This document shows positions 188 to 34,431 of a stretch of 60,133 bases of DNA, in pieces. Under the pieces are notes generated by a model. That model saw only the letters and a list, made by a program, of their open reading frames with translations, made no database searches and was not told the origin of the DNA. Source of the DNA: Schmidtea nova (taxonomy: Eukaryota); contig CM097884.1 of NCBI GenBank assembly GCA_044892505.1, positions 18,972,001 to 19,032,133 of the forward strand, read 5' to 3'. Both the position numbers and the translations under genes were made by a program. Numbering within the stretch: position 1 is the stretch's first letter; each line of letters begins with the position of its first letter.

Positions 188-247
188 TCATGCGAAATAA
201 TCCCGTGCCGTCGGGTCATAAAAATCGTACGGATCATCTGAGGTACC

Positions 248-288
<41 letters not shown>

Positions 289-3200
289 GAAGCTCTTGAT
301 TGCCATCCCGATCACCTACAAATATAGTGGTGTCACCCCCCATATAGTGGCCATACGCCAAACTTTTATTTTTTTCCACCCAGTTCCTCTTATCGTCCCT
401 ACAAGATAAAGCCCTCTTATTACTTTTAATACTAAAGAGCTGATGGTTTTTGCTCGTAATTCGGAACTGGGGGACATTATATATTTTGTCATTTAAAAAG
501 CAGTCAAGGTAAGACTGGTGTGTGAGACCTGCATCTTTCAAACAGATCCCCTTCGCTTTCATGCAGGCCTCGTCTCCCATCAGGCTATAACACTTAGGTC
601 TTAAGAAAACCCACTCATCATACAGTAGACCCTTATTCTCATCCTTAAATTTACCAATCACAGAATCAAGGGTCCTACTATACAATGTATGATGAGTGTC
701 GTAATTAGAGGTATCCAAAAGCCTATCGTCAATCATTGCGGTCAAAAGAGTATTTAAAGGCAGATTTTTGATTTCCAAGAAGAAGGAATCAGTATCCCCA
801 GCAACGATGTTAATTTCGCAGTTGAAGTCGTTACGATATTTTTGTAACTCTTCATACTGCAGCTGGTACATACGAAGTTTGGATAAATCCAGTACGGTTT
901 GTCCAATGTAGCTGGGTCTATCCAAACATACTGATTCCTTCTGAAGCAATACGGAGATGAGGTCATTGTCGATTTTGGTAGTTTTTTTGGAATTAGCTTT
1001 TGACGTGTAAGTCAGCAGTTTTTGTGCCGAGTTACACAGTCTTAAATTAATTCTTTTTTTTAAATTCTCTACGGTTTTGCCGTAGAGACTATTATTTAAT
1101 AATTTATAAAAGTTCTTATCGAGCTTATTTGTTGATGCAGCTCGTAAGTCGGTGTTTATTTTTATATAATTAAAAAAGATTTTATTTTGTGTAAATTTAA
1201 TAGCGCGATGTATGTGCGTTACCTTCACACCAATTTTAATAAATAGTTGCAGAAGCCGCCAATGAAGAACATAATTCTTCTTTGGAAGATGCGTTAGCAA
1301 CAGCTTCTCAACCTTGGATCCCGGTGCACACATCTTTTCAGCGGCAACTGGAAGATCATCCAGTTTGTCGTGAATCGATGCCGGAATTTCCAAATCCACT
1401 TCTATGGTGTAACCATAATGAAGTGTATCGAGATTTTCCGATGTGCACTCACAAACGATGTTATTTAATAATTGGTCATCAGTGACCCACTCAAAATTAC
1501 CACAAGGCAGGGGTTGGCTTAAGGCCCACCCATATAAATTATTAATATCAATATATAGTAATGCGGTATCCGGGCTCGTCTTGACATAATGTTTATTGAC
1601 AAACGTTAGTCCGCCGCGAATACCGCCCTCGAAAAAGTTATACATCTCCATATCGGTGAGGAGCTCGATAGGAGAGTCAAGAGTTAATAAAGCGGAACTC
1701 CACGACATGCCGGGAATTCCGAGAAAATTTAAAGGCTCAAGCCTGTTATGATTTATTGATTTTAATCGAAATTGCTGAAAATAGTCAGCTAACAAAAACA
1801 CATCCAATTTTAAATAAACCATCATGTAATCGTACAGTGATGTACATGAGGTTTCTTGCCAGATTTTATGGGCAGCAGCATACTCGACAGCAGTTATATC
1901 TTTCCATTTGGGGGGTAAACACAAGGTAGATTTTAAAACCTCTAAAGAAGTGGCCGCGTCGTAAGGAAAAATGCCCTTGGCAGTGACTATAGTACCGCGA
2001 AATTCAGAGTTTGTTAAAGGTAAGCTAGTAAGTGTTTTTACTGCATTATTTAGAGACTCACTTACAAACTGATAAGAGTCAATAAATTTTACGGTCAGGC
2101 TATCGATGTACGCGAAAAGACTTAAAAACTTTTCGCTGGTCAAGGGTATACAACTAATATTCCAACTGTTGTATTTGGAAAGACCATATTTTAAAATATG
2201 GTGCAAATCGTAACCCTTCAAGTTATGAAAAATTACGGGCAAAGAGTGGCGTATTTGCCGGGACTTGTTACACTCTGAGCAGGCTGCTCCAATATAAAGA
2301 CCTGTGAAATGGTCGTGATCCCTAACAGGTGCCACTAAAAGTTTTTTGCATAAATAGTAATTAGTGCTATTATCAAATTGTCGCTGTTGGGTCGCAGTAA
2401 TAGTCATACGTTTTTGATAATTTTTATAATAATAAGGTGTTACTATATACCGACTGATTGACTCAATTTCTCTTAAGAATTGATCAACACAGTCTAGCCC
2501 TACAAAAGATTTGTATATTCTCACCCCAGTAAAGTTGTTAATAAGAAGGAGACCTGCAGCAATAGGAAGATGTTTTTGGTGGTGAACAATATCTTTAGGT
2601 AATATTGCCTCGAAATCCGCATATATTACAAAAGGAGGAGTTACTGTTTTTTTCCAATCAGTAAACTCCAAAAATTTATTTTTTGGTAAGGTGTACAGTG
2701 TGGTACCCAACTGATTTTTGTTACAAAGACCCTTATGACGATTAAAGGCTTCGTCGTTCCTAAACCCATTCAAGCAACGAGGGCACCATTGACTGCAAAT
2801 CCTAACTGGGGTGATTGTGCTGTTTCGGCAATTCAAAAAACGATTCAGGTCGGTAATCGCAAGATAATGAAAATTATCTTTTTTCTCCAAGAGAAGCAAA
2901 TTTATGGGAATTGCCCCGACTACTTTACTGCGATATACTATGTCTATAAAAGGGTGTTTAAGTACGACATTATCATCATTATCGCTATCACTTATATCAA
3001 TTTGGGCCTTTTCATCATATGTAAGGACATTAATACTATAGCCACTGTTTTGTCTCTCAAATTTTTTTATGTTAACTAATTTCATGGGCATGTCGTTGGG
3101 GTCAAAAACAATTTGGGAAAGATCATAAGAAGTAGTCCTATGCCTGTATTGGCGTTCAATACTATTATATTTAACTACTGCTAAAAAGCTATATAAAAAG

Positions 3201-4384
3201 CAATAGGTGTCGTTATTTTGGACATTAACTAAACAACTTAAATTTTTTAAAGTATTCGGAGTCTCGATATAACTGCTGCCGCTCAATCGACTAATTTCAG
3301 AAAATTTAGTCACTAAAAAACTAATATATTCTATTTTGGAGATTGTCCAATTACTCCCCTTTTCGTTAATCTGGACAATCTTCTCATTTAAATTAGTGAC
3401 ACCTTCCTCAATAAAGGTATCACTCCACTCTCTAGCAGAATTTGAGATGACGAAAGATTGTAATTGATCATCTTTCTCAAATTCTACCTTGAGACAAAAT
3501 TGAATTTTTACTGATTTTAAATTAATTATATATGATTTTAGTTTTTCTAATAATATATCCGGCACAGAGACCGTTTTTAATAATAAATTAGAAACATCCA
3601 TTTTTATAATAAAATGGGTATCGTTCAAGTCGGAAGTAACTTCAACAATACCCATTCCAATTTGATTATTATTATTATTTAAAATATTAACATAATCGTC
3701 AAATTCATCATCATTGACGATTATGTCATCGGCGGATATAATACTGATATTAGTACTTTTATTATAAATAAGATCATCCTCATCANNNNNNNNNNNNNNN
3801 NNNNNNNNNNNNNNNNNNNNNNNNNNNNNNNNNNNNNNNNNNNNNNNNNNNNNNNNNNNNNNNNNNNNNNNNNNNNNNNNNNNNNNNNNNNNNNNNNNNN
3901 NNNNNNNNNNNNNNNNNNNNCTGATGTCGATTATTATAATTTTTTTAGGAACTGAATCCGTTAATGTAGTATTTTTTCTTTTATTTATATTAGATGTATT
4001 TATTTTATTTAGATTATTAATTTGATTTTGATTATTAGTATTTTGTAAATTATTTGTGTTAATATTATTTGTATTTGGATTTTGTAAATTATTTGTATTT
4101 GTATTATTTTGTAAAATATTTCTATTATTTGTATTTGGATTTTGTAAATTATTTGTATTTGTATTTGGATTTTGTAAATTATTTGTATTATTATTAAGAT
4201 TGTTATTAGTAATATAATTTTTATATAAAGAATTAAAAAGAGATTTTTTAGATGGTTGATATTGGGAAAGGTGTAACCTATGAAAGATATAAAATTCCCT
4301 ATAAGATGTCGTCTCAATAATTTTACATTTAGGGCATAGGAGGTGGGTGACACCATTATATTTATATGAATAATACTTTTCCAT
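188..4384 (-). CDS. Protein-primed family B DNA polymerase (pPolB) with EndoVII-like insert; spans an N-gap
   Basis: ExoI YADFEA, ExoII HNLKGYD, ExoIII YLKLDV, PolA YIDINNLYG, PolB KLLNNSLYGK, PolC GDTDS; RDHDH...CSECN insert; Asn-rich N-terminus, polyQ C-terminus. Confidence 0.97.
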
Positions 4385-5279
4385 AATGACATGACAGTCA
4401 CTATGGAAAGTATTGTTGCAAAAATTTTGATATATTGAGCCTGAATATGATGAAAAAAATTAAATCAAAGGCTACAATTAAAAAATAATCACAGTAAAAT
4501 AAAATATATAATTTAACTTATTATTTAATAAATATTTTAAACAATAATATGTTTTTGGATAATAATAACTTTTATTTATTTATTTTTTCTTTGAACAATT
4601 ATTTATATTTAAAATAATAGGTAATTGTTTAAAAAACATTTACATATTATATTAAATATAAATTTTTTATATCTATGCATAAAAAAAAATATATTATAAT
4701 AATCAAAGTTTTTTATATCTATACATAAAAAAAAAACATAATTATTCCATTATAAGATATTAATAAAATAGCATTAAAATAACTTAATCTTTTTCATAAA
4801 AAATATCTTTAAAATATCAAAAGATTCATTTTCTTCATTTAAATTATTTAAATTAAAATATCAAAATATTAGCTTCTTCATTATAATTCTTCATTAAAAT
4901 TCATCATTAAAATTCATCATTAAAATATCAATAAATTCATTATTTCATAAAAATATCCTAAAATATCAAAATACTATCTTCTTCATTAAAATTCATCATT
5001 AAAATACCATTAAAATATAAAAAAAAATTATTCTTTATTTCATAAAATATCAAAAGATTCATCTTCTTAATAAAAAATTATTTGGTCTTTAAAATATCAT
5101 CTTGTTCTTCATTAATAAACATCAAAAATTCATTCTTTTTCATTAAATTTCTTCATTAAATTTCTTCATTAAAATAACAAAAATTCATCTTCTTCATTAT
5201 AAAAAAGTACCATCATCATCATCGATAATATTAATAATTTATTTAAAAGATAGTAATTAAATTTTTAAAAAAAAAAAAA

Positions 5280-5686
5280 TCATATAATTACATTATCATC
5301 ATATAAAATACTAATATAAAAATTACATTTTTTAGAGTTTTTAAAACTCTGTCCATTAATATAGTTCGGGACATCAGTATAGTTCGGAACATCAATAATC
5401 GGGACATCAATAATCGGTACATCATCATCAATAAGAGAGCCATCTATATCGACGTTTTGGAAATTATTGCCTAAAAGTTTAATAATAAACAAAATAAAAT
5501 AGTATAAATTTTTACCAATTAAGTTATTTTTATTTCTGAGTCCGTTTGTCAAAGATCCTGACATATTATTAGCTAAATTAACACCTAGAAATAACATAAT
5601 ATAAATATAATAAAATAAAAATTAATAATTTTACTTTTTAGACCTCCGGCGATCCTTGTTGGTAAATTTATATTTAAATTTTGCAT
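5280..5686 (-). CDS. Spliced accessory ORF (MQNLNINLPTRIAGGLKSVNL...), exons 5686-5635, 5584-5516, 5470-5280; 3' end uncertain
   Basis: Two GT-AG introns (5634-5585, 50 nt; 5515-5471, 45 nt) join an ATG exon in frame; DVP repeats; CCAAT/TATA-like motifs upstream. Confidence 0.5.
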
Positions 5687-6064
5687 TATTTCTTCTTTAA
5701 AATAATTTGAAATTCGATTTAAAATTTGAAAGTAAAAAGTGACGAAATAATGCAAGTATATACTATATAAAGGTGAATTTTATTAACCGGCCAATCAGAA
5801 TCGAGATAGGATAGGCAAATACATGCACACATACTGCACACATAATGTACCTTTGTTTATGTGTGTTTGACGTCACGATATTGCTTTGTATTGTGACAAA
5901 GACATGACATGTCACGTTTTATCATGTGCTTATCACGCATTGATCACGCACTGGTCATGCCTTTGTGATGAAAATAATAATAAAAATAATTAATAATAAT
6001 AAAAATAATAATTAATAAAAATAATAATAAAAAATAATAATTAATAAAAATAATAATAATACAT

Positions 6065-6466
6065 TTATTGTTTTAAATAATCAACAACAGCAGACAAGCA
6101 CCCTTTATAGGCACACATACAATGATCTTTATAGGGACATGAAATGTTTTCAGGAACATATTCAACTTCTTTAAAATTATATTTAATTAATCTTAATTTG
6201 GGGAAATACTTCTTCAAAACATACATCTTTTCATTATCTGTTACATAGAAAATAGCTCCTTTATCGGTAATATCATCCATTATACATTTTGGGCAAAAAT
6301 AATCTTGTCCTTCAAACGATTCTATACGATCAGGCCATAAAGATAAATCACTGTATATATAATACTGAGGTGTGAAAATATTATTGACATTCATAATACA
6401 TAATTCCTTAATTGTTGTTCCACCCATTTCATTATATCCATAAAAATCGATAAAATAACAAGACAT
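6065..6466 (-). CDS. Polinton accessory protein, DnaQ/DEDD-exonuclease-like (probably inactive) with C-terminal Cys/His cluster
   Basis: IDFYGY...IKEL N-terminal pattern lacking the second acidic residue; CPYKDHCMCA tail. Confidence 0.45.
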   Translation of the reverse strand: MSCYFIDFYGYNEMGGTTIKELCIMNVNNIFTPQYYIYSDLSLWPDRIESFEGQDYFCPKCIMDDITDKGAIFYVTDNEKMYVLKKYFPKLRLIKYNFKEVEYVPENISCPYKDHCMCAYKGCLSAVVDYLKQ

Positions 6467-6498
6467 TTTTTCAAATAAAGTTTATTAAAATAAATTGT

Positions 6499-6876
6499 TT
6501 ATAACATTGATTTCAACCATGCAAGGCAATGTTCACCACAAGTGATTGTTAAAGGATGCTGATACCGAATTCTATTATACACAATAGGTTTACCAATAGT
6601 TTGTAGTTTTCGAACAAGTAAATTCGGATAATAATATCCAAAGGGATCAAATACATGTATTCGATCTGGTTTCACATAAACTGCAATCCAATGTTCACCG
6701 CCCAATGTAGATGTCTGAGTATTTACAATGATGGCTTGATTCATTTTCAAATAAGGTATTTTATCGAGAGGGAATACTCCAATAAATTGATTTCCCAATA
6801 GTTTTTTACCTTGTTGTAATACCTGAAAAGAACTATTTAAAAATAAATAACTAATCAATTAAAAATCTTACTCCAT
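6499..6876 (-). CDS. Adenain-like cysteine protease, spliced (exon 6876-6872, intron 6871-6833, exon 6832-6499; 112 aa)
   Basis: GEHW, FDPFG, YQH...TCGEHC catalytic motifs; splicing yields the start MDSFQV. Confidence 0.92.
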
Positions 6877-6955
6877 AATAAGAATAATAAAAATAATAAC
6901 TTTGATCATTTATACTGTTTGAGCTCTGTTCAAACTAATAATGTTTAAGCTTTGC

Positions 6956-8176
6956 TTAAACCAGTATTGTTCTATTGGCAGTAATTTGAACTTCATTTTC
7001 AAAAACTCCATAAATAACTACATGAACCGGTTCATCAATAGGTTTGGCAAACTTTATATCGAGTCGTAAATTTCCGTTTTGAGGGATTTGGCTTTGATTC
7101 AAATCAAAGTCGGGAGCGAGCACAAATGTAAAGAATGGATAACTAGATTTAAATTCATCCAGACTTATACCACAATTCAAGTTTTTATCCAAATATCCTA
7201 GATTTCGGACAAGACTTTGCATATATGATGCACTAAAATTATCATTTTCAAAATCTTGAGTATAAGTTTCTCGAAAATCAGTATTTTTCGATAACGATAA
7301 TGAAGTCACATTGAAATGTTTGAATGTAGATGCAGATTCAGCATATGATCCATTATATTGATTTTCAGTTTGAAAAGCCACAAGAATGAAATTAGGCATT
7401 CTTCTATCTCCAAATATTTGCTCCTTGTAAAATGACGATGCCCCTTTACCGATTGCAAACGATACGATTTCTTTGGATTTTAATGGATAAATTGCATGTT
7501 TACTATTTAAACCAATTTGATGACCGGCCAATACTGAAGAATCACATCGAACTCTTCTTACCATTAATTTTGCATCAACTATTTGGATTATAGGTTTCCC
7601 AGCTGCAGATTTCAATGATAATGAAGATTCAGATCTCTTCAATCTAATATGTACATTAACTCCGGGAAGTAAGTATTTTGGTTGATCCATAAAATCGAGT
7701 TGTAATGATGAACACATGTTGAAAAGTTTAGATCCCTTGATCCATTTTTTCCGATCGTCAGATGAACCATATCCCATTGGAGTAAGACATGTTTCTTTTG
7801 TATCGCTAGTATAATTTAAAACAGTTTCGATTATGGCCTTGTGTGCATATGTATTGTTTCCACCCTCGATTTTTATATTATTAAATCCAAGAATCGCATC
7901 TTTGAAAAGAGTATGAAATAGGTAATTATTAGGCACTACATCACTCGCATCAACTAATTTATTTTTATCTTTATCTAGAACCTTGACAGTAACGGATAAT
8001 AAAGTATCGTTCAAATCCAAATATTCGGTTGCCGATCCATTAATGTAAAATTCTACATCATTTCTACTATCTGTAATAGAATTCATTGGAAAAACATCTT
8101 CAAACACCCCATATTCAATAACTGCTTGAGGTGATGGTCGATCAAAAAGACATAATTCAGATTTACCGCAAATCAT
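6956..8176 (-). CDS. Major capsid protein (double jelly-roll)
   Basis: 406 aa; SELCLF..P.PQ N-terminus, EFYING...YLDL pattern, C-terminal LRLDIKF; position between protease and core proteins. Confidence 0.88.
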   Translation of the reverse strand: MICGKSELCLFDRPSPQAVIEYGVFEDVFPMNSITDSRNDVEFYINGSATEYLDLNDTLLSVTVKVLDKDKNKLVDASDVVPNNYLFHTLFKDAILGFNNIKIEGGNNTYAHKAIIETVLNYTSDTKETCLTPMGYGSSDDRKKWIKGSKLFNMCSSLQLDFMDQPKYLLPGVNVHIRLKRSESSLSLKSAAGKPIIQIVDAKLMVRRVRCDSSVLAGHQIGLNSKHAIYPLKSKEIVSFAIGKGASSFYKEQIFGDRRMPNFILVAFQTENQYNGSYAESASTFKHFNVTSLSLSKNTDFRETYTQDFENDNFSASYMQSLVRNLGYLDKNLNCGISLDEFKSSYPFFTFVLAPDFDLNQSQIPQNGNLRLDIKFAKPIDEPVHVVIYGVFENEVQITANRTILV

Positions 8177-8538
8177 TCTTCAAATATAGTTCCATGACCT
8201 TTCATTCGTTTGTTTATACGTTTTCTAATCTTTTTACGTCTTGGTCCTACCGGTTCAGGTTGCGGTTCGTTTTTGGAAAACATATTTGAAATTGACGGTA
8301 TCGCCTTGGATACAGCCTCCATAGCATTCGTTTTCAATGTAGGTAAAATTTTCTGATCTTTCATTATAACGTCTTTAGCAGTTTTCATTCCAAAACTGCC
8401 CAGTCGCTTAAGTAGTGGAAGTGCAAATCTTCCAATAGTTTTCAACCAACCTGATCCATACTGTTTACCTATAAAATACGGTAATTCGCCACCAGTTTGG
8501 CTATTACTGTACAATGAAATTATATCGGGATTACTCAT
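8173..8538 (-). CDS. Small basic core/membrane-lytic-like protein (adenovirus pVI-like)
   Basis: QTGG and QYGSG motifs, amphipathic WLKTIGRFALPLLKRLG, basic tail ending MKGHG. Confidence 0.6.
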   Translation of the reverse strand: MSNPDIISLYSNSQTGGELPYFIGKQYGSGWLKTIGRFALPLLKRLGSFGMKTAKDVIMKDQKILPTLKTNAMEAVSKAIPSISNMFSKNEPQPEPVGPRRKKIRKRINKRMKGHGTIFEE

Positions 8539-9556
8539 GATGTTTTCGAAAATGTAGAGTCAAATGAGTTTTTGAATTTTTTGGAAAGTTTATTAAATTA
8601 CCTCTATCATCTCGGATATTTATTTCTATATTGTTTATACAGGATGTTGAAACAGATAAATACATTGGATTTTCAACTTGTATTTGAACAACCTCATCCT
8701 GTTCATATTTTTCAATCCATACAGATTTCAACATGGGAACTAATGAATCACCGACAATTATAGGATTGACTATATTACTGTAAATGAACATTTGCTGATG
8801 AAGTTTAATTATTTTTGGTTTATATATTCCAACAATGAAGCTTCCGTCTTGAGCATATGTAGCTTTCGCTAATCCCAATGTTTTTACAAGGTTATTGTCA
8901 AAAGTTATTTCGCTAACATCTGCATTCAAACTGAATTTGAAGTAACTATCATCTACCAATTCCAGAGATTTAAAAATACTTGCACAATTTAGAATAAAAT
9001 ATGATTGCATTTCATCCAGTTTCGATATGTATAAATTATCGGTAAATGTATGTATAAATACAGAATCAGCCTTGTACTCCATCTTTATTCTAATTTTTTC
9101 CGTTAATGGACCATCTATACCATAATATGGTAACGGTATCTTGTATGTATCTGTAGGACTTACAATACTCTGTTTCGTTAATCCCATTCTTTTTGCCATT
9201 GCCAAAGTATCAAAAGTTATAGTGAAGGGAAAATTATCACAGGTAAAATAAATAGAATGTCTATCGCTACTGATTTGAGCAATATCATCGGCAGGATTAG
9301 ATATATCAACTTCACAAAATTGATTGTTGATAATCAAATTTTTATATTTTGTATGTATAGTTTTCTTTTTGTACCGAATTTCTGATTTACTGTAAAATGG
9401 AAATGGATTATACACAAATGTAAAGTCTAAGAGAGCGACTTCCCAAATTCCGTCCAAATACATTGGATTTTGGAGATTGACCATGAAATTACTGGAAGTA
9501 TTATCTGGATGTATATCTGGACAACTGTTGCTAGGTAGAATCATATAAAAATTCAT
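8531..9556 (-). CDS. Minor capsid protein (penton); likely start at 9556 (MNFY), track start 9583
   Basis: FYMILPSN...NTSSNF...L..P..LDG.WEVAL N-terminus and LTLHFRK C-terminus. Confidence 0.88.
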   Translation of the reverse strand: MNFYMILPSNSCPDIHPDNTSSNFMVNLQNPMYLDGIWEVALLDFTFVYNPFPFYSKSEIRYKKKTIHTKYKNLIINNQFCEVDISNPADDIAQISSDRHSIYFTCDNFPFTITFDTLAMAKRMGLTKQSIVSPTDTYKIPLPYYGIDGPLTEKIRIKMEYKADSVFIHTFTDNLYISKLDEMQSYFILNCASIFKSLELVDDSYFKFSLNADVSEITFDNNLVKTLGLAKATYAQDGSFIVGIYKPKIIKLHQQMFIYSNIVNPIIVGDSLVPMLKSVWIEKYEQDEVVQIQVENPMYLSVSTSCINNIEINIRDDRGNLINFPKNSKTHLTLHFRKHHE

Positions 9557-10600
9557 TTTACTAGGTTTTTTGATGATATCCATGATGGTTCTTTATATCC
9601 GTGCCACTTTACATAGTATTGTTTATCCTTACCCACCATTTTAGATTTCAGGATTTTTTGAATTCTAAATATTGTCGGTGGAGGAATAACTTGTAATTCT
9701 TGTTCGTAGAATTTCCCACTGATTATATTGTTATCAGAGTCACAAATAGTATACATGACAGGATTCTGCACTGTGTTGACTTTCGATATTTGATATACCT
9801 CATCACTCCAATTATTATCAAAATTTTTAATGAATGGCGATGCACTAATCTTGCTAATTCGAACATGATCACCAATTTTATATTTTGGTTTCTTTACTTT
9901 TACTTCACTCACAATATTTTCAGTATCAACTACTTCTGCCGGTTTCCTGCCATTTATACCCCGATGAGCACTATGATTATAACTATGAATCAATTGAGGT
10001 AAAACATTAATCCAGGTTTTATTGCCTTTAAAAACAAAGTATTTTTTCAATCGATCCCGCAAAGTTCGATTAAATCTCTCGACATGAGCGGCTTTGAATT
10101 GCGAGAATACCGAATAATGATTTATTCCCTTGATAACTTCCTTGACTTTACTGTTGTAAAATTCCTTTCCTAAAAAATATTAAAAAATGTATAAATTTAA
10201 ATTAAAATTTACCCAAATCGGTTTGTAAATTAGTTGGCCGATCCTTTTTCATCATTGTCTTGATAGCGATTGCCATGTCATTAGCTGATTTCGATTTTAC
10301 TCCAATTGCTCGAGCAAATCTACTGTAAACATCAATACATGTTAAAATATACTTGTACCCCTTGTTAATAGCGGAATACGGAATCATTTCCATCAAATCC
10401 ATTTGCCACAAATCATTGATTCTATATGTTTTATATGCTCGGGTTGGAAACCGTTTCAACATCGGTTTGTTTAGACTGTATGCAAGTTGCCCCGATAACC
10501 AACTTTGTGTCTGTTGTTTCGACTTCTGTGCTTTTTTCCTTAGCTTTTCGACTCCACCGAAACCGGCGTCGTCTTTTGGGTTCGTCCAGATCTTCTCCAT
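9553..10600 (-). CDS. Retroviral-type (rve) integrase with C-terminal chromodomain, spliced (intron 10212-10170; 334 aa)
   Basis: WQMDL, then QTDLG|KEFYN across the intron, VERFNRTL, YYVKWHGY chromodomain; spliced length 1005 nt, no internal stop. Confidence 0.95.
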
Positions 10601-10655
10601 TACAACAAGAAGATTTAAAGTTTAAATTCAAATTAGGTAATGATTGACCCATTGT

Positions 10656-11201
10656 TTATGACCTTTGTCCCAATAAACCAGCACCTCCCAATAATGATAA
10701 AGCTAGTGGTAATAATGCGGCAATAAATCCTCCTTGTTGTTTATATATTATTTTTCGCATAAGTTTTCGATTTTTTGTTTTTACTAGCGACAACAATGGT
10801 TTCTTATGCTTGTTCAAAACACGTCGATTAGATGGACTGAGATGCATTTTACCTCGTACTACTTTAATTAAAATAGTGAGTAAATCATCGATAACGTAAT
10901 TAGGAAACGATTGAAGAATACCCATTCTTCTAGCGGATGGGGCTTTAAGCAATGCATTAAAAAACGGAAAACTCCGATGATGTACTTGTTTAGCATTTGA
11001 TTTCAAATTAATTGGAATTTGATTTTGTTTGGGAAAATTATCCATAATTAGTTTTTTCGATGGTGTATAACTTGTTTTTGAAACTGATTTTGAAACGGAT
11101 TTCTTTGTCGATTTCTTTCTTCGACCTGCTTTCTTACCTATTTTCATTGATTTTCGAGCTTTTATCAATCGTTCAAACTTTACTCGAGATTTCATTAACA
11201 T
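10656..11201 (-). CDS. Basic core protein with adenovirus pX-like C-terminus
   Basis: K/R-rich; ends QQGGFIAALLPLALSLLGG. Confidence 0.55.
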   Translation of the reverse strand: MLMKSRVKFERLIKARKSMKIGKKAGRRKKSTKKSVSKSVSKTSYTPSKKLIMDNFPKQNQIPINLKSNAKQVHHRSFPFFNALLKAPSARRMGILQSFPNYVIDDLLTILIKVVRGKMHLSPSNRRVLNKHKKPLLSLVKTKNRKLMRKIIYKQQGGFIAALLPLALSLLGGAGLLGQRS

Positions 11202-11221
11202 TATTATTACTGTAAATCAAT

Positions 11222-11845
11222 TTAACTTTGTTTATAAACCATGGCTCCTTCCTTGTTAAAAATATCAGTTCTAACCCTTAAATCATCACTGCATTGTTGA
11301 GTAAAATCCAAGAAAATATATCCATGAGGAGATTTTGTAGCATCCTGAAAGGCTTCAATCAAAAAGTTACGATTTGAAGGATAAGCTTGTCTTGCCAGAA
11401 AATCAATAACTGTTGCATCTCTAGGATTTTTAAAAACAACAAGATATTGAACATTTAAATTACGAGTTCGATGACTACCGCCCTGATGAAATAAATTCTG
11501 AGTTATAAAAATAACAGTAACACCTTTATGTCTACTGATTTTCGTAAATAAATTATTAAAATCCTTTTCTTTATTTGCTTCTTGATACAAGTCGTCAATG
11601 ATAATCACATCACCTTGTTTTAATCTAGATGACCAGTTTTTATCGAAACCTTTTATGATTGTCATTTTTATTTTACAAAACTGATCTTGTGTCATTCCAC
11701 TTTCGTCGTCAGCACCCCTATGCCAATAAATATTATTAAATTTCGACTTGAATAATTTCGATTGCAATAATTTACAAACAAATAAAGTTTTTCCACTCCC
11801 GCTAGGACCAACAATTTGAAACACTGCATCATTTCTTAATTCCAT
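11222..11845 (-). CDS. A32-like genome-packaging ATPase
   Basis: Walker A GPSGSGKT, Walker B IIIDDL, SRH..VTVIFITQ, KNPRD. Confidence 0.93.
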   Translation of the reverse strand: MELRNDAVFQIVGPSGSGKTLFVCKLLQSKLFKSKFNNIYWHRGADDESGMTQDQFCKIKMTIIKGFDKNWSSRLKQGDVIIIDDLYQEANKEKDFNNLFTKISRHKGVTVIFITQNLFHQGGSHRTRNLNVQYLVVFKNPRDATVIDFLARQAYPSNRNFLIEAFQDATKSPHGYIFLDFTQQCSDDLRVRTDIFNKEGAMVYKQS

Positions 11846-11938
11846 ATTTAAAAATTATATTTTCTTAATATTATTGTTTATATTTGTTTTAAATACCTGT
11901 TCTCAAAGTAATCATTTCATTTAAAAATATTTTCAGTA

Positions 11939-12406
11939 ATGATTAGAAACATTAATTACAAGGGTAAGACAGATGTATCACACATGAAATTTCCAAATGG
12001 AAAACCCCAGCAAATTGTAGATCGAAGTGGAAAATACCCAATAATATACTTTAAATCAGGAAGATATAGAATAATGGGATGCAGGGAATTTATTAGTGAC
12101 GAACAAGTTGAGTTTTACGATTTAAAGATACAATCGATAACTGTAACTGCAGATTTAGGATTTATTTGTAATTTGAATGAATTATCGAAATTAATACCAT
12201 GTGTTTACGAGCCAGAATTATTTCCAGCTTTGAGATATATCAAATATAATCCCATGTGTGTAAATATATTTGCAAGCGGAAAATTAGTCATATTAGGATT
12301 AAAAAACAAAGACTATAGTACTATAGTTGATGATATTATTTACGATATAAAATCAATTATAGAAGATAAAGCCTTTGTTGATTTCATACTAACATGTGAC
12401 TCATGA
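11939..12406 (+). CDS. TATA-binding-protein-like protein
   Basis: ITVTADLGF..NL, YEPELFPAL and IFASGKLVILG match the TBP second repeat; IYFKSGR resembles a degenerate first repeat. Confidence 0.85.
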   Translation: MIRNINYKGKTDVSHMKFPNGKPQQIVDRSGKYPIIYFKSGRYRIMGCREFISDEQVEFYDLKIQSITVTADLGFICNLNELSKLIPCVYEPELFPALRYIKYNPMCVNIFASGKLVILGLKNKDYSTIVDDIIYDIKSIIEDKAFVDFILTCDS

Positions 12407-12574
12407 CTGCAATATCGATGCATTAGAAATGCACGATTCTGATTGGCTCTGTGTGTATCGTTAGAATAAAGACATGTTGTGCATGCTTCATTCTGATTGG
12501 TTCATTATGTGTGTTTCAAATCATGTGTGTTTCTTTGATATATATACTATGAACAATCTCGCATATTCACAATA

Positions 12575-13221
12575 ATGTCTCTTACGCAAACACTAATTAA
12601 AAGCCGTAAGGATTTTTAATTATTTATTTATTAAAATTAATATTATTTCTTTTTTTAGAAAAGCTGATGAACGTCATATATCGGAAGCTGGAGGAACTGT
12701 TCCCAAATCTGATGCCGGCTCTGGTCTACACGGCTCCGGAGATGTTCCCATATAAAATTATGGTCCTGACTGGTATCGATATAAACCAGATTGTGCTCGA
12801 TCATATGACGAGCCAGAATACCGATTTGCCAGTGGTACCCGAGCACATTATCTGTGCGTACCAATGCGGAAGTTGTGTTGAGCGCATTCGCCAATTCAAC
12901 ATTTGGGTTTTGCGAAACTCATTGAAATTATACGAAGTCCAACAAATGGACAAAATCAATGAGGAGGAGGAGGAGGACCAAATCAAGGAAACCTGGCCCA
13001 ACTCAACTCCGGAGCCGACTGATGAAACAACAACAACAACAACAGAATTGGAAGCACCAACTCTAGATGGTCCGTTTCCATCCGATGAATCCGATGAATC
13101 CAATGATTGTATGGATTCGCCACAATCACCGGATTGTGCAGAATGCCATCGACAAGCTGATGGTGGTGTTGAGGAGGAAGAAGAAGAAGAAGAAAAAGAA
13201 AAAGAAAACACCGAACAATAA
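12575..13221 (+). CDS. Spliced accessory protein, Cys-rich and acidic (intron 12606-12658; 197 aa)
   Basis: GTAAGG...TTTTAG intron joins MSLTQTLIKS in frame to QKLMNVIY; paralog at 27609-28043. Confidence 0.7.
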
Positions 13222-13747
13222 TTTGATGTGTGTGTGTGTTTAATGTATTTAGTTTTTAGTTTTGTAATTTTAGATTAATAAAAGTTTTTTTTTTTTTTTT
13301 TTTTTATTCATTTTAGTTTTTATTTTTATTTAAATAATAGTAATACTTTTTGATAAAAAAATTTTTTATTAGTAGTTTTTTATTAACTATATAAAATAGT
13401 AATTAGTTTTTATTAAATAATTAGTAAGAAAGTGTTTTATGAAAGATAATATTAATAATAATAATAAAAAATAATAAAAATAATTGTTAAATAAACAAAT
13501 AAGTAAATACATTAGTAGCAGAACATTGCAAACAGAACCCTGGACGTAGAACTTATTCTGTGATTGTTTTTATATGAAAAAGCTTCATAATAAATAATTA
13601 AAACATACATGCATGCATACAACAAAGACATTGCAATACATGTGCATACTGTGTGCAAAACAAATGCATGAATATGATTGGACAAAGACATCCAGTCATC
13701 AGTATAAATACAAAGACATTTTATAAAATATTGTCACTATTTACAAC

Positions 13748-14164
13748 ATGCAATCACGAAAACAAAATCTCGATATATGCGATGAAAAAATATACCAGAC
13801 TGAGGTAAAACCAGTTCAGATGTACTATGACAGCCGACTTTATTTTTTGGTTAATGAAATACCGTATCGATTATCATTTCCGGTAAAATTAACAAAATCT
13901 TTATATGATAGTCTTGCTGTAATTATTGCCAAGGAAGATATTATCGCATTAAATAGATTATTTTCAAAGATGAATGTTAATTTGACATGTAAAGAAACCA
14001 TGTACATCAATAACAGAAAAACTCGGTTTCATGATGCTTTTCAAACTATTGATTTCATGGATCAAGAACACTGGTTCGTTACAGTTATTATTCAAGGGTA
14101 CAAGATTGATAAAAAAGATGTTGTTACTCCGATTTGGAGAGTTGACAATGCAAGATACGCATAA
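13748..14164 (+). CDS. Polinton accessory protein of unknown function
   Basis: 138 aa; clear paralog at 31656-32063 (shared PVQM, FLVNE, FHDAFQ, IQGYKID, PIW). Confidence 0.7.
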   Translation: MQSRKQNLDICDEKIYQTEVKPVQMYYDSRLYFLVNEIPYRLSFPVKLTKSLYDSLAVIIAKEDIIALNRLFSKMNVNLTCKETMYINNRKTRFHDAFQTIDFMDQEHWFVTVIIQGYKIDKKDVVTPIWRVDNARYA

Positions 14165-14228
14165 TTGTTTTTTAATAAATATTTTAGTATGAACAAATTT
14201 AGTTTTTATATTAGTTTTTGTTTTTAAA

Positions 14229-14816
14229 ATGAAATTAATTATAGTTATTTTATTATTATGTGTTGATAATACTGAAGGAGAACAAGCTTTGGAAGATTGT
14301 CAATCATCCCATCCGTTTCGAAAACAAGATAGTACTTGCGCGAGTTATAACGATATATGTCTTTACTCAAACATTGAATGCAATCAAATAAAATTACAAT
14401 GTAATCAATGTCCTTCCAAAAATAATGTGATTAATAAAGATATTGAAAAAATGATTAACAAAATAATGATGAAAATAGTTGAAAGATTAAAATGTATAAA
14501 TCAAACTATTGTTAAAAAAGAATATGAAGTCAGATACCAAAATCAAACAGTGGAAAACGAAAAAACAGCAATTGTTTTACATTATATAAGTTTATTTATA
14601 TTAATAATTATAATGATGTTATCGGCATCCATACGGCTGGAGAAGATTTCAAATATTCCAAAGAATAATATTCCGACAAATACTAGTATTCCGATGAATA
14701 ATATTACAATGAATAATAATAATATTCCTATGAATAATATTCCGAGTAATAATTCAGATGTAAATAATTTTGAAACGAAATTTTGTACACGTACACAACG
14801 ATATATTTATAAATAA
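14229..14816 (+). CDS. Predicted type I membrane protein with Cys-rich ectodomain
   Basis: Signal-like MKLIIVILLLC, Cys-rich segment, TM IVLHYISLFILIIIMMLSA, Asn-rich tail. Confidence 0.55.
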   Translation: MKLIIVILLLCVDNTEGEQALEDCQSSHPFRKQDSTCASYNDICLYSNIECNQIKLQCNQCPSKNNVINKDIEKMINKIMMKIVERLKCINQTIVKKEYEVRYQNQTVENEKTAIVLHYISLFILIIIMMLSASIRLEKISNIPKNNIPTNTSIPMNNITMNNNNIPMNNIPSNNSDVNNFETKFCTRTQRYIYK

Positions 14817-14830
14817 ATTTTGGCTTTTTA

Positions 14831-14995
14831 ATGTCTTTGTTTATGTTGTACATGTGTTGCACGCATGTGTCTTTGTTTAGTTTGCATGTGTATTGCAATG
14901 TCTTTGTTCATGTTGCACGCGTGTTGCAAAGTCCTTGCACGTGTGTTGCAATGTTTTTGTTAACTTGCACGCGTGTTGCAATGTCTTTGTTTAGT
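14831..14995. repeat. Imperfect tandem repeat of ATGTCTTTGTT / GTTGCACGCGTG units
   Basis: Several ATGTCTTTGTT and TTGCA(CGCG)TG copies visible. Confidence 0.7.
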
Positions 14996-15219
14996 TTGAA
15001 AGATAATAATTAAATAAAAAACATTAGTAGCAGAACATTTAGTATCAGAACCCTGGAAGCAGAACATTGCGATCAGAACCCTGGAAGCAGAACCTCTTCT
15101 GTGATGGTTTTGAAGTGCAAAAGCTTCATACTTGACAAATAATAATTAATTAAAAATGCACACATATAAAAATGTCTTTGTTTGCACACCTGTTGTAAAT
15201 ATTTTTGATGACTCTAATT

Positions 15220-15590
15220 TGGTCTTATAAAAATAATTTGTCTTAAAAAAAAAATTTTTGAAAAAAATAATTTGTCTTAAAAAAAAAAAAATTTTTTGAA
15301 AAAAATATTTGGTCTGAAAAAAAAATTATTGAAAAAAAAAATTTGGCGCGAAAAAAAAATTTTGAAAAAAAAATTGGCGCGAAATAAATATTTGAAAAAA
15401 AAAATTTGGCGCGAAAAAAATTTTTGAAAAAAAAATTTGGCGCGAAAAAAAATTTTGAAAAAAAAATTTGGCGCGAAAAAAATTTTTGAAAAAAAAATTT
15501 GGCGCGAAAAAAATTTTTGAAAAAAAAAATTTGGCGCGAAAAAAATTTTTGAAAAAAAAATTTGGCGCGAAAAAAATTTTTGAAAAAAAA
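15220..15590. repeat. Subterminal ~31-bp tandem array with 8 TTGGCGCGAAA (E2F-consensus) cores
   Basis: GGCGCG cores start at 15345, 15376, 15408, 15439, 15470, 15501, 15533, 15564; three degenerate units precede. Confidence 0.9.
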
Positions 15591-15597
15591 AAAATTA

Positions 15598-15771
15598 TGA
15601 CTCATCGATGACTCATCGATGACTCATCAAAAAAAAGTATGACTCATCGATGACTCATCAAAAAAATTTTTTTTTCTACCCCCCCCCGGGGGGAGGGGGG
15701 TCTTTGTTCTTTTTTTCCGCCCACGCATGAGTCATAATGTCTTTGTTCCCGGCTCCACACATCTACCTACT
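15598..15771. promoter_or_regulatory. Right terminal region with TGACTCA (AP-1-consensus) repeats and C/G-run palindrome
   Basis: Five TGACTCA in 15598-15660, TGAGTCA at 15728, C-run/G-run at ~15679-15700. Confidence 0.7.
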
Positions 15772-27031: not shown

Positions 27032-27608
27032 CAGATAGAATACGATGTCAGATTTTGGACTTAATTAAATTTTTGCTCGTTTTTGTTTTTGTTGTTGTTA
27101 TTTCCGAAGTTTTTCCTTCGATTACCTAATTCATATAATTAAATTACCCGTCACACAATGAAAGGAGTAGCGATGAAGGATTTAAATATTATCAAATTCG
27201 TAGTTTCGTTTTGCTTGTTTTTTTTTTTTTGTTTTTATGGTAAATACATAGCCTCACACGCACAAAATAGAACAATAATTGCGTAAGTCCTTCTACGGCC
27301 GCGTGAACCCGTAAACATAAAGGGGGAGTAGTCCTAGCAATAGTGCTCACCTGCCCCTCATTGTTTAACCACCCTGCGCATCACCAACTTGGTTATCAAG
27401 GGAAATAATCAAGGGCGCTCGAGTGTAGCTTACGACTATTTATGCATGATCATGGATGGGAGATCCCTAGCAATCATTCGAATTTTCACCAAACCGTCCA
27501 TGAACCCAGCATATCTGTTAAAGCTTCATTCAATATTTTATTTACAAATAAGTGTGTGTGTGAAAATAATTAGTATATATACCAGTTATTTTTCATTTAT
27601 ATTCTAAA

Positions 27609-28043
27609 ATGTCAAACTTAACCACAAATGGTAAATTTTGATTATTTGTAATTCATCTTTTAACATTTATTTTAGAAAAACTTATGCAAATTTTAATTAA
27701 CAAGGCAGATGAGCTTTAACAATGTCTTTTAAAAGATTTGATATACTGGGCACCGGAAATTATACCATTTCGAATATGGATGTTAACCGGAATATATCTC
27801 AATGTTGTTTTATTGGATCATTTTAAGACGATTGATCAGGAACTATTGGTAGTAATATATCATGAACCTTGTGTATATCGATGTGAAAGTTGCGTTGATA
27901 GGTTGAAGAACTATCATGTATGGATTCTAAAAAATGAGTTGAGAAAATATCATTTTTCAACCATTGTAGATAAATGTTCAAATATTGATGATAAATGTTC
28001 AAACATGGATGAAAACTGTGCAACCATTGATGAAAACATTTGA
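27609..28043 (+). pseudogene. Paralog of the 12575 ORF, intron 27631-27675, premature TAA at 27717
   Basis: MSNLTTN|EKLMQIL...WAPEIIPFRIWMLTG...CVYRCESCV aligns with the 12575 protein. Confidence 0.8.
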
Positions 28044-28571: not shown

Positions 28572-29106
28572 TTATTTTCGATAAATTAAATCAACTATAA
28601 CATAAATGCTACAGAATCCAATTGTTATCTTCAATAAACGTTTCAATTTTCTTTGGTTCTTCTAATAAATCTACTATTTTCAGCTAATTCTATTAGTTTT
28701 TGCCACTGACCATTTTCTTGAACCCAGGGGCATATTTCACTTTGGATAATCTAAAATAATATTAATAATATAATTAAATAAAAATAATATACCTGTACTG
28801 ACCATTGAAAATAATTTTCATAATTTGAACCCGAAATTTCAATTATTTGTTTTATATACATGAACGCCACAATAACATGTGACCACTTCATTTCAGGCTC
28901 AAATAACGAGTAAAACACTCTTTTGAATGCATGTTTCTTGCTTGTAGTCAATTTTTGATTCAAAATCCATGAATAGTTGATGGGATTGGAATGATATATT
29001 TTCTCGGCATCTGACACCAAGATTTGTAAACTTGATATGATTTCATCATCTTTTCTTTAGACAAGAGACCGTCAATCAAATTTATAATAAAAATTTCTTG
29101 TTTCAT
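28572..29106 (-). pseudogene. Bcl-2-family gene with a 42-nt intron (28792-28751) and two frameshifts
   Basis: BH1-like LFEPEMKWSHVIVAF, BH2-like PWVQENGQW after splicing, BH3-like LQILVSDAE, TM tail ITIGFCSIYVIVDLIY. Confidence 0.75.
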
Positions 29107-29174
29107 TTTATAATTAATCATAAATCTTCAAGTATTTATACAAATTTATCCAAGATGTATGTGTGTATTACTCA

Positions 29175-29285
29175 TGAATTGCAACTTGATTGCATGTCTG
29201 GTGCAACTTGATTGCAATTCTATAGCGACTTGATTGCAATTCTATTGCAACTTGATTGCAATTCTATTGCGACTTGATTGTAAAT
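29175..29285. repeat. ~22-bp tandem repeat GC(A/G)ACTTGATTGCAATTCTATT
   Basis: Five to six units visible upstream of the Bcl-2-like gene. Confidence 0.8.
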
Positions 29286-30129
29286 CACGTGTATAGGCAA
29301 CAAAGAAATTGTAAAACAACTATAGATTTTACTATAATTTATGTGTCAGTAAACCGCCTTAATTTACTATGACAAGTAAGTTTTGGCTAACGGGTATTCA
29401 TATAAGCAATGACCATATTATTTACTTAAATCATCATATAATATACTAAACATGTGTGTTTTCACTAAACTAAAACCATCCATATTAACATATAAAATAA
29501 AAGAAATATTATTTACGACCCCACCCGCTAAACTTTCACAAGAAACATGCGATTTATACATGTTAAATAATTGCGTTGACTTACCTGGTTCTGTTAGAAT
29601 AACATTAATTTTCTACATGAGAAAATAGTTTTACAAAAGAACCTTGTTTTACATAGAAAAATTATTCTATACAAAAACATTGTTCTATACAAGAACATTG
29701 TTCTATACAATAACTGATAATATACAAAATCGTCAGTATTAATTTTAAATTTAGATTTAACTTTAGAATTAACAATCATAGATATGATCAAGTTAATAAT
29801 AATAAAAATAATTATATCAATAATATTTTAAAAATAGTAATAAAAATAATATTAAAAGAGAAATATATCAATAATAGTAATAATAATAATACTTTGAAAA
29901 ATAATAATTTGAGAAATAGTAATAATAATAGTAAAAATAGTATTAAAAGAGAAATATATCAATATTTGTAATAATAATAATAATAATATCAATAATATCA
30001 ATAATACTTTGAAAAATAATAATAATATCAATAATACTTTGAAAAATAATAATAATATCAATAATAATACGTTGCAAAATAGTAATAATAGTAAAAAATA
30101 GTATTAAAAAGAAATATATAAATATAAGT

Positions 30130-30186
<57 letters not shown>

Positions 30187-30228: not shown

Positions 30229-30303
<75 letters not shown>

Positions 30304-30304
30304 G

Positions 30305-31214
30305 TATTATCAATAATTCTCATAATGACTATAGATCAAATTTTTTTTATAAACAATAACACAATATTTCGGCACAGCCTTTATCAAGTGTGTATTTCTA
30401 TCGTTATATTTACTTAATCCTAAATAGTAGCCTTAATTATTTTTTTAATATTTTATAATGATTTTATTGGATAAAAAATTTATTTTAATTTTTTTGTGCG
30501 AATTGAATGTTGATGGACGGTTTGTATTTTTTTATGAAAAAAGTCTCGGAAGCTAATCTTTGTAATGAATTTTTGAATCCCTCTTGTAGAATCTGGCATT
30601 TTGTTTCTTCTATAGATGGAGTTGTTTTATGTACTTTCTCCCAGTGTTCGTAATAATTACTGGTTTTGATTTTAGTGTGTTCATTAAGTCGGGTGCGAAA
30701 GGTTCTATGTGTTTCTCCTATGTAAGTAGCGTCACATTTTTGGCAAGAAAGTTTATATACTATATTTTTGGAAAAGCAAAAGCATCGGGTTGTGGAACGG
30801 CAAAGACATTTATGTTTGGAGATGTTGGAAATTGGTGGCTTTCGGAGTTGTGATTTTAACGGTGCGGAGGTTATGAACGTTGGACGGATGTGGATAGGCA
30901 AATCTGTTTGATTAAAAATGTTGGTGATTTTGTTGGCTGTAGTGTCATTTAGGAAAGGTAATCTTAGATATGTTGTGTGTTTCTTATTGTTATTGTGTTT
31001 CTGGCGTTTTCTATTGTTGCGTTTATTGTGGTATGGTTCGTTAAGGAAGTGTTTCTTTACAAAGTCTTCAGGGTATCCATTTTGGAGGAATCGTATTTTG
31101 AAGTTTTCTAATGTTTCTTGTATTTTGTTTGCGTCTGAACAGTTTCTTATGGCTCTTTTTCTTTCTCCTATTAATAATGAGATTTTGCGTTGAAGTGGAA
31201 CGTGGCTTTTCCAT
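30305..31214 (-). mobile_element. 5'-truncated Penelope-like element (GIY-YIG part and 3' end)
   Basis: Near-identical to 37292-38200; flanked by (AAT)n. Confidence 0.9.
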
Positions 31215-31655: not shown

Positions 31656-32063
31656 ATGAAACCAGTTAAGAACGATACCAAATCAATTCAAAACAAATTT
31701 GATTTACGACCTGTTCAGATGTTTCACGATTACCAAATGATTTTCTTGGTAAATGAAGTCTCTTTCACGGTCCCAAATCCGGTAAAGCTGTCGACTTCGC
31801 AATATTCAAATTTAATTGGCCAGCTTTATAAAGAAGATGTTGTTGCAATCAATAAAGTGTTGATGAAAATCAACAAGAAATTATCTTTCAATGAAACAAT
31901 ATTCATCAACAACAAGAACACCGAATTTCATGACGCATTTCAATCCCTTGAGTTTATGGACAATGAAAATTGGTTTATTGATACATCGATTCAAGGATAT
32001 AAAATCGATCCAAAAGAATCAATGTCTCCAATTTGGAAGATAAAAAGCGCAAGAATTGCATAG
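31656..32063 (+). CDS. Paralog of the 13748 ORF
   Basis: Collinear similarity over the whole length. Confidence 0.75.
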   Translation: MKPVKNDTKSIQNKFDLRPVQMFHDYQMIFLVNEVSFTVPNPVKLSTSQYSNLIGQLYKEDVVAINKVLMKINKKLSFNETIFINNKNTEFHDAFQSLEFMDNENWFIDTSIQGYKIDPKESMSPIWKIKSARIA

Positions 32064-32345: not shown

Positions 32346-34431
32346 AAATAAAAAAAATTTATTACTCATTGTTTGTGTAAATAAAAATTTCTCGGGGGGG
32401 TGTCGCAAAAAAAAGTACCCCCGGGTTGGGCTACTTGATTTTGATTGGTTATGACTCATCGATTACGTAATATGTCTTTGTTCTGGAGTGCCTACATCTG
32501 TCTACTGATATTTTTTTTAATTATTAAGCCTTATTTTATAAAATAAATAATTTACTTAATATATTTAATATTGAACTAGATTAACATAATTTGAAAGTCA
32601 ATACAAAGAAAATTATAGGAAATAGTAATTTTTAAATGAATGTCAAAAGTTCCATTCTTATTAAATATTTTTAAAATTTTCATGTAACCCATTAAATAGG
32701 AAACTCAGGTATAAGTAATATCTAATATTTATTTTTAATAATTATTTTCAACATGAATATTCTTAAAAGAATATCTGTTATATTTACCTTTTCATAAATT
32801 TCAAAATATTTATGTAAAAAATAACATTTATATAATTTGTTAATAATTTGCTACATGACATTGTTAATGTTACAGTTATTTTCATTGTATTGTTTCAATT
32901 GTATCCATATTATATAACAAGTAAATTACTTTGGAGATTGGGATGATCAATTTCCCGAATGCCAATTCGAGAGACAAATGAGAAAACAGAAAATTATCAA
33001 AATAATTGTCAAACCATGGAGGTTGGTTAGCTTATTATTTGAACTAATAGTAGTGGCAAGTAGTTAAAAAAGAGCACACGATGACCTATTGTTTTTTCAA
33101 ACTCTTTCTAAGTCCAAAATAGTGACGTGATGAGTCATAATTTAGGCCAAAGTCATTTGAACAAAGACATATTACTATTTATAGACTAAAAATGTTATGA
33201 GCTCAAACTTACTAATCACTTTTCAAAAATAATTTTCATTGACCCCTTAACTAAGAACTTTTTTAAAATTTCTAAATCAATTTAACAAAAAAATTTTTAT
33301 TTTTGGTGACCCCCCCCCCGTTTAAGTTCTACGGAAGGTTGTATGAAAAATATATTTAGTGTTTTGTAATCAGGAAACAATTCTAAGACTTTTATCTAAG
33401 AATAAATATTTTTTATACGGTCATTGCTTTTGAATGGGCGGTTTGTTTTAAAATTCTTGTTTTGGTGAAATATATTTAAAATTTTTGTAAGTTTAAAGAA
33501 ATAACTTAGAAAGAACAAAGACTTTTATTTATATTATTATATGAAATTGACGTGTGTGTTAGTCATGTACATGTACATGTTATTTTTATTTTAATAATAT
33601 GATTATATGAAATTGTGGATTTATGTCTTTGTTTGTGTTGAGGTTTCAAGAATCTCAACTTGGTATCTTATAAAAATAAATAAGATAGCACTGGTTAAAA
33701 GATTTTATTCAATATATAACAATTACAAATTACTTCAAAAAATCTTACAGATTCACAATGCGTGATGTTTCTTTTATATGCATATATATGCGTGTGTATG
33801 CGTCAGTGCCTCCTGAGCTCGATATCTTGTATGCTCGTATTTATTATTTCAATAGTCGATAACAACTATGAAATTCTTCTTATTCAAAGATTTTATGGGT
33901 GGTTTGACTGAAAAATCAGTCAGTTTATAAACTAATTTCTAGTGCACCAAATCTGACAATAATGATTTTTTTCTACTTGAATTGCTTAAATTGTTTTCAA
34001 AAATGAATTGTATTCAAAACATTTATTTTCAAAACAGAATTGTTTTCTTACCTTGGAATTATTTCATTTTGCTGACCTTTTAGGTCATAAGTGTAGTGCC
34101 TCCGTCATATATATATTTATTTATATTTTAACTAATTTATATTTACATAAGTAAATTAAATAAAAAGAGAGATATTTATAAAAAAGTTTTTTTAAAAGAA
34201 CAGAAGTGATATCCGATTTGAAATTCAAACGTAAGCAAATTACGATAAATTTGAAATCCAAACGCAAGCAATTTACAATAAATTTGAAATCCAAAACTCA
34301 ATAATTTATAATTGATTTGAAATCCCAAACGCAAGAAATTTATAAACGCTAAAAAAATTGGAAAATCATAAAAGAAGATATTTTTTAAATAAATGTGTAT
34401 TGAATATTTCTTCTTGTTTAATTTTGTTTTA

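Follow-up and report, generated by a model that had tools for sequence, protein, structure and literature searches.

A spliced Bcl-2-family gene, now most likely a pseudogene, as probable cargo of a highly repeated Polinton

Does a short, interrupted reading frame on the minus strand at positions 29106-28572 of the window (the whole stretch of 60,133 nucleotides analysed here) represent a gene of the Bcl-2 family, and does it belong to the mobile element around it? The initial annotation described a spliced Bcl-2-family gene with a 42-nt intron and two single-base frameshifts in A-rich runs, located in the remnant of a second Polinton (Polinton 2). We found all of its pieces on the minus strand, with the intron at the place described, and they make up a two-exon gene of ~170 codons with one short intron and a tail anchor. 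The N-terminal piece (29054..29106) opens with the ATG at 29106, holds helix 1 at a BH4-like position, and terminates at the first frame change, which lies in a short A run near 29056-29050. The remainder of exon 1 (28793..29053) is read in a single frame (29053-28793) and contains a degenerate BH3 region, BH1 (KWSHVIVAF) and helices 5-6. It is followed by a phase-0, AT-rich GT..AG intron of 42 nt (28751..28792) and by exon 2 (28650..28750), which keeps the same frame, carries BH2 (PWVQENGQW) and runs until the second frame change, again in a short A run (near 28652-28647). The tail piece (28572..28649) is in a different frame and encodes a hydrophobic 19-mer and then basic residues; the stop at 28572 overlaps AATAAA. 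At the other end, a TATAAATA box stands ~30 nt 5' of the ATG, in an upstream region (29133..29287, minus strand) that also holds 11-bp TGCA-rich repeats like those in the right arm of the first Polinton of the window (Polinton 1).

To evaluate family membership, we used the middle part of the gene read through, with an X at the intron stop (P0001), and scored the outer pieces separately. The profile search proposed in the initial annotation returned Bcl-2 (PF00452) as the single Pfam family matching P0001 (E 4e-5), at 24.5 bits and thus under the cut-off of 31.4; the exon 1 remainder alone reached E 0.004. The best PDB sequence matches of P0001 were to Bcl-xL (E 0.002, and E 3e-8 with a profile). 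An unfiltered search of 1.84 billion proteins with the window piece gave two relatives at E up to 0.001, and profile searches raised this to five in all (5/492 and 5/826 candidates), which are 35-38% identical to the window gene in the alignment and all come from short contigs. When a profile was built from these five relatives alone, the exon-1 peptide ranked first of the 2359 six-frame peptides of the window, with 88.2 bits vs 6.8 for the next, and the same profile found no second Bcl-2-like gene among these peptides. Other searches were less productive. A word-indexed homologue search with a single window piece retained none of seven candidates, and none of seven proteins matched PHROGs. 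Among viral contigs, the exon-1 query led to two loci (L001 and L002) with only 16-residue matches, which we took as chance, and the relatives' alignment, the Polinton 1 capsid and ORF-B (a small Polinton gene) retained 0 of 63, 7 and 205 pattern matches, respectively. Among metagenome contigs, one of 271 pattern matches was retained (L003), a locus in which other recognisable genes were absent. None of the five relatives could be tied to a Polinton.

One of the relatives (P0002) is an intact natural protein of 166 aa that is 36% identical to the window gene and was retrieved with the window piece, at E 1.4e-12, from 1.84 billion proteins. It matched Pfam Bcl-2 with 45.3 bits, above the 31.4 cut-off. 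Its predicted model (pLDDT 85.7, pTM 0.82) superposed on Bcl-xL with Z 15.7 and an rmsd of 2.5 over 131 residues. Each of the first 36 rows of that fold search was a Bcl-2-fold protein, and a separate Foldseek search gave E 1e-5. The eight-helix Bcl-2 fold is therefore predicted for the window gene through this relative. The window piece's own model, which lacks helix 1 and includes intron residues, was poor (pTM 0.37) and had no significant fold match: its Foldseek rows were of the Bcl-2 family with E at least 0.085, and a wide search gave background. Taken together, the profiles and the fold of the intact relative support the assignment of the window gene to the Bcl-2 family that had been claimed for it.

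With the relatives at hand, the outer pieces could also be judged. The score of the N-terminal piece against the relatives' N-termini was reached by only one of 3000 random window peptides, and on this similarity the piece belongs to the Bcl-2-like gene. The tail piece was weaker (94/3000), and its assignment draws more on hydropathy and position than on sequence; the mean hydropathy of its 19-mer was 1.88, vs 1.83 and 1.74 in P0002 and in a further relative, P0004.

The motifs that had been read in this gene were borne out in part. The tail anchor expected of PF00452 is present (the 19-mer and its basic end, in the other frame after the second break), and so is the BH2 motif (W..GGW), although the window copy reads ENGQW, not GGW (PWVQENGQW vs PWIQENGGW in Bcl-xL and P0002). 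The NWGR-like BH1 did not stand as described: the BH1 region aligns across all six sequences (F..LF....W..(V/I)), but the window copy has KWSH, in which only the W of NWGR is retained. The Gly of NWGR is replaced in all six sequences, and the Arg is kept in 4/5 relatives and absent in the window copy and P0002; the relatives read K/Q-W-S/T-R/Q at this position. The LxxxGD core of BH3, which is LREAGD in Bcl-xL, is absent in either register from the window copy and from 5/5 relatives. Judged from the alignment, the BH1 NWGR and BH3 GD signatures of the window gene are thus degenerate.

The intron is placed by the same comparison. Seven alternative in-frame GT..AG pairs exist in the window gene, and we prefer the 42-nt intron because it fits a 14-residue gap that opens exactly there against the intronless P0002 and P0004. 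In the DNA of L003, P0004 is contiguous, and this locus may be a transcript. P0005 and P0006 show a V and then low-complexity residues at the intron column, as expected for read-through into a GT intron, and P0003 stops at that column, less clearly. The intron interrupts helix 6, ahead of BH2. In vertebrate Bcl-2 and Bcl-xL, an intron lies inside BH2.

The surroundings of the gene were interpreted with Polinton 1 (188..15771) as the reference for gene order. This element encodes a protein-primed PolB, an adenoviral-type protease, a capsid, a spliced integrase, an A32-like ATPase and a TBP homologue (11939-12406, plus strand; Pfam TBP, E 1e-13), followed by ORF-A, ORF-B and a right terminus that ends in CTACT at 15771. 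Its small genes have TATA-like boxes, and the five-relative profile found no Bcl-2-like gene in it. Polintons (Mavericks) have terminal inverted repeats starting AGT and a 6-bp target duplication. Polinton 2 (27512-32506) is recognised by the two genes, the motifs and the terminus that it has in common with Polinton 1, and has the order ORF-A, Bcl-2-like gene in antisense, a Penelope fragment plus a gap, ORF-B and terminus, compared with ORF-A, ORF-B and terminus in Polinton 1. Its ORF-A (27609..28043, plus strand; intron 27631-27675) is 40% identical over 96 aa to the Polinton 1 ORF at 12661, and the similarity continues through an in-frame stop at 27717-27719. ORF-B (31656..32063, plus strand) is 47% identical to the Polinton 1 ORF at 13748-14164. 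The right terminus (32403..32506, plus strand) ends in CTACT at 32506 and can be aligned to the end of Polinton 1 at 15771, as well as to either end of a mini-element; the left end is absent. Between the gene and ORF-B, the 3' fragment of a Penelope-like retroelement (30305..31214, minus strand) has been inserted, 95% identical to 37292-38289. At least six TTGCA/TGCAA words occur in only four of the 121 500-bp bins of the window, two of them in Polinton 1 and one upstream of the Bcl-2-like gene. Synteny with Polinton 1, the shared terminus and motifs, and the repetition of the stretch in sequencing runs (see below) all agree with the location inside a Polinton 2 remnant given in the initial annotation, and we consider it very probable that the gene is Bcl-2-family cargo of a Polinton.

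The left truncation point of Polinton 2 lies at 27512..27540 (plus strand), against an A-rich giant element. At 27520 we found the second half of a motif of which Polinton 1 has two complete examples. The first half is supplied by other copies, where 8 contigs of run X2 and 5 of run X4 show it in loose ends that precede 27512; Polinton 2 was therefore cut at 27512 by the giant element. The giant-element stretch (15772-27511; 43% A, 20% T) contains ankyrin, repeated cysteine-containing domains, a single-exon TRAF and coiled-coil ORFs, and resembles the planarian Burro elements that have been described. Polinton 1 ends inside the first long ORF of this element, which in turn abuts Polinton 2, and the three look nested. 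Judged from this Burro-like neighbour (ankyrin, TRAF and an env-like fragment), the host would probably be a flatworm.

Several other features of the window are recorded here as observations in their own right. One Penelope-like element, with its RT at 36501-38021, is represented by pieces that are 92-99% identical (30305-31214, 36501-38289, 52653-53213 and 59138-59795), one pair being inverted. A region of TGCA-rich repeats (38950-39950) contains a AAAGCTTCAT motif and matches 31547-31661 over 118 bp; its sequence suggests a further Polinton-related fragment. A second skewed stretch (about 41000-46000) includes a fragment at 41921-42340 (minus strand) that matches a Monjiviricetes-type fusion glycoprotein (E 3.5e-6, under the cut-off); Burro elements are reported, in passages of PMC6431247, to have a mononegaviral type of env. 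Host-like fragments on the minus strand (a proteasome alpha subunit and a WW-domain protein; 49592-50119 and 51179-51598) are apparently single-exon.

The overall reading that we favour, and hold to be probably correct, is that of an accessory Bcl-2 gene with a pro-survival role in a repeated Polinton family, of which the window copy is dead. On this reading, a divergent, multi-motif Bcl-2 gene is an accessory to a family of highly repeated Polintons (Maverick/adintovirus-type). It lies in the right arm of the element, antisense between two conserved small genes. Working copies would be transcribed from their own TATA promoter and then spliced, and the protein, anchored in the mitochondrial or ER membrane, would bind and sequester the BH3 helices of host proteins that promote death. 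Cells would thereby survive replication or recent integration of the element. The anti-apoptotic function itself is something that we infer. Bax/Bak-like effectors have the BH3 core LxxxGD, and its lack in 6/6 sequences speaks against a killer of the Bax/Bak type. In parts of PMC11209288, most viral Bcl-2s are described as inhibitors.

It is possible, if unlikely, that the same gene in the same place encodes something other than a plain survival factor, such as a protein that controls autophagy, blocks immune signals (like the poxviral A46, A52 and B14) or antagonises host Bcl-2. With the BH1 Gly replaced in all six sequences and the Arg missing in the window copy and P0002, a canonical BH3 groove would not be assured, and the loss of the Gly may leave room for another use of the fold. 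This would be consistent with the degeneration of both NWGR and LxxxGD across the window gene and its relatives, with the non-apoptotic viral Bcl-2-fold proteins in the fold list of P0002 (Z 6.8-8.5), and with the TRAF of the neighbouring giant element, by which signalling cargo is common in this genome. Nonetheless, the closest proteins by fold and sequence are the pro-survival Bcl-xL and Bcl-2 (Z 13-16 vs 7-8.5), and BH2 and the tail anchor are retained.

A rather improbable variant of the Polinton reading concerns the carrier: the gene could sit mainly on a non-autonomous Polinton derivative, or form a repeated unit of its own that is nested between ORF-A and ORF-B, instead of belonging to autonomous Polintons. 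The gene is missing from Polinton 1, and PolB or capsid genes of Polinton 2 are absent from the window, its left part having been cut off at 27512. We saw no complete Bcl-2-bearing Polinton among the window and the contigs of the runs. The spacers hold many loose ends of other copies (28058, 29175-29279), and a 435-bp non-autonomous mini-element at 48554-48988 has Polinton 2-like inverted ends on both sides, with 6-bp flanks that match at 5/6 bases. On the other hand, the upstream repeats and the TATA/AATAAA layout are the same as in Polinton 1's own genes, a search around the Bcl-2-like gene revealed no terminal repeat of its own, and a contig links ORF-A to it in two runs.

With regard to the two frame breaks, it had been left open whether they mark a pseudogene or errors of the assembly. 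The four runs that we compared (X1, X2 and X4 among them) are from one organism and one study, consist of contigs only, and may represent another lineage than the source of the window. At the first break, other copies differ from the window by an indel at 29050 in 4/4 runs, at 8-18% of the depth there; the contigs are too short to show which state is the majority at this position. Other copies also have loose ends at 29051, 28650 and 28647. Of the A/T runs in the Bcl-2-like gene, 2/17 are broken vs 0/194 in the Polinton 1 core genes (7986 bp), an excess with a Fisher p of 0.006 that was calculated post hoc. At position 27719, in the in-frame stop of ORF-A, nearly all contigs of the four runs differ from the window. 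The comparison gave 189 variant places, of which 40 are listed, all of them near-fixed differences. Among these 40, 14 fall in the Bcl-2-like gene, 7/14 at third codon positions (p 0.15), and in the conserved core all 5/5 listed differences are at third codon positions, a subset that was chosen after the fact. Further indels between window and runs lie in spacers. The third-position differences hint at selection on the Bcl-2 cargo family, and they may also mean that the runs come from another lineage.

We consider it most likely that the window copy is a true pseudogene that decayed in place, because the adjacent ORF-A is broken by an in-frame stop, because the element has been both cut short and interrupted, and because frameshifts are absent from the neighbouring Polinton genes. 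Pseudogenisation, as proposed at the outset, is thus favoured over assembly error, though not proven. That the locus encodes a working protein and owes both breaks to the assembly seems to us improbable. Such a reading could draw on the position of both breaks in short A runs, on the differences of other copies at both sites, and on the third-position pattern of the core, which would point to fairly recent selection on the lineage (post hoc, and not evident in the whole gene). It has against it that the stop of the next gene, ORF-A, is independent and of substitution type, that none of the comparable runs in the Polinton 1 core genes is broken, that further indels separate window and runs in the spacers, and that the element is itself truncated and interrupted.

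The runs also bear on whether this could be host DNA. The stretch 27400-29760 was covered in 30/30 bins in all four runs, by 1922-5574 contigs per run, a coverage that indicates highly repeated sequence and is not a copy number. Single contigs of X1 had depths of 450-1200, one of them inside the Bcl-2-like gene, vs 4-13 in the pieces of low depth. In both X2 and X4, a single contig connects ORF-A (27981) with the 3' end of the Bcl-2-like gene (28581), and no contig in the four runs spans the whole stretch. Being highly repeated in four runs, the gene is therefore element cargo and not a single-copy host gene, and a position in host DNA outside the element is contradicted by the repeats and the Polinton flanks. 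Nor does the intron argue for host DNA, since AT-rich GT..AG introns of 43-53 nt also occur in the Polinton 1 integrase (10212-10170, minus strand, 43 nt) and in ORF-A of both Polinton 1 (12606-12658, plus strand, 53 nt) and Polinton 2 (27631-27675, plus strand, 45 nt); the 5' end of the Polinton 1 protease also appears spliced. That this is a single-copy host gene lying by chance among Polinton fragments, or that it belongs to the Burro-like giant element next to it, is very improbable: the gene does contain an intron, Burro elements are reported with a BCL2-like motif (in passages of PMC6431247), and the Burro-like stretch ends ~1 kb away, but the stretch is repeated, the Polinton genes here contain introns too, the gene lies beyond the 27511/27512 junction, after ORF-A and on the opposite strand, A and T are balanced around it (37/37%) vs 43/20% in the giant element, and the Burro motif is, as described there, a polyprotein domain.

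Bcl-2 cargo in Polintons and adintoviruses is already published. In the portions of Starrett et al. 2021 (PMC8502044) that concern these genes, adintovirus homologues of Bcl2 and IAP are observed, with Bcl2 appearing three times in the maps, and anti-apoptotic genes are noted in most mammal-associated adintoviruses in passages of Buck et al. 2024 (PMC11071296). As in the window, these are Bcl-2 homologues on animal Polintons with PolB, integrase, protease, capsid and ATPase (here those of Polinton 1); unlike them, the window gene is spliced and broken. The Bcl2 of a Branchiostoma lancelet adintovirus (BFVD entry A0A5H3CWZ2) shares 12% identity with P0002 by structure alignment (E 0.085), and the window lineage would probably be a separate capture. 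The main text of PMC8502044 and the text of its Supplementary Fig S2 name no flatworm, and in the literature searched, with most subscription papers outside that search, we found no description of a Bcl-2 gene in a flatworm Polinton.

Compared with cellular Bcl-xL and Bcl-2 (PF00452), the gene shares the BH1-BH2 spacing, the BH2 pattern PW-QENG-W, the eight-helix fold (in P0002) and the C-terminal tail anchor. It differs in its ~20% identity, in KWSH for NWGR, and in the lack of LxxxGD and of the long loop after helix 1. The adenoviral E1B-19K, which the initial annotation gave as precedent, holds as a functional analogy: like the viral Bcl-2s treated in parts of PMC11209288, it shows the Bcl-2 fold in a dsDNA virus from the broad lineage to which Polintons also belong. 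It is not the nearest precedent, which is found in the Bcl2 genes annotated in adintoviruses, i.e., Polintons; the best E1B row against P0002 had E 0.14 and 16% identity, and herpesviral and ASFV Bcl-2s score better. A further comparison is offered by the planarian Burro elements, whose cargo is treated in a review by Arkhipova and Yushenova. These giant LTR retrotransposons are described with BCL2-like, BIR and TRAF motifs (passages of PMC6431247) and likewise bring apoptosis-regulator cargo into a giant mobile element, and a Burro-like stretch with ankyrin and TRAF adjoins our locus. By that description, the Burro motif is one domain of a polyprotein in a retroelement; the gene described here stands on its own, is spliced and lies in a DNA element.

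A far-reaching and decidedly speculative extension is that two unrelated giant selfish elements, Burro and Polintons, captured apoptosis regulators independently in a flatworm-type host, and that a high-copy, selected Polinton Bcl-2 lets element-bearing (stem) cells escape death and out-compete their neighbours. This would amount to a drive at the level of cells, and would add a large dose of non-canonical Bcl-2 to the host death pathway. The window copy itself is most likely a fossil. With this gene, the cargo annotated in Polintons gains a spliced, high-copy case that was probably captured independently. Should the host be a planarian, RNAi and assays of its stem cells would offer a rare chance to test a Polinton accessory gene in a live animal.
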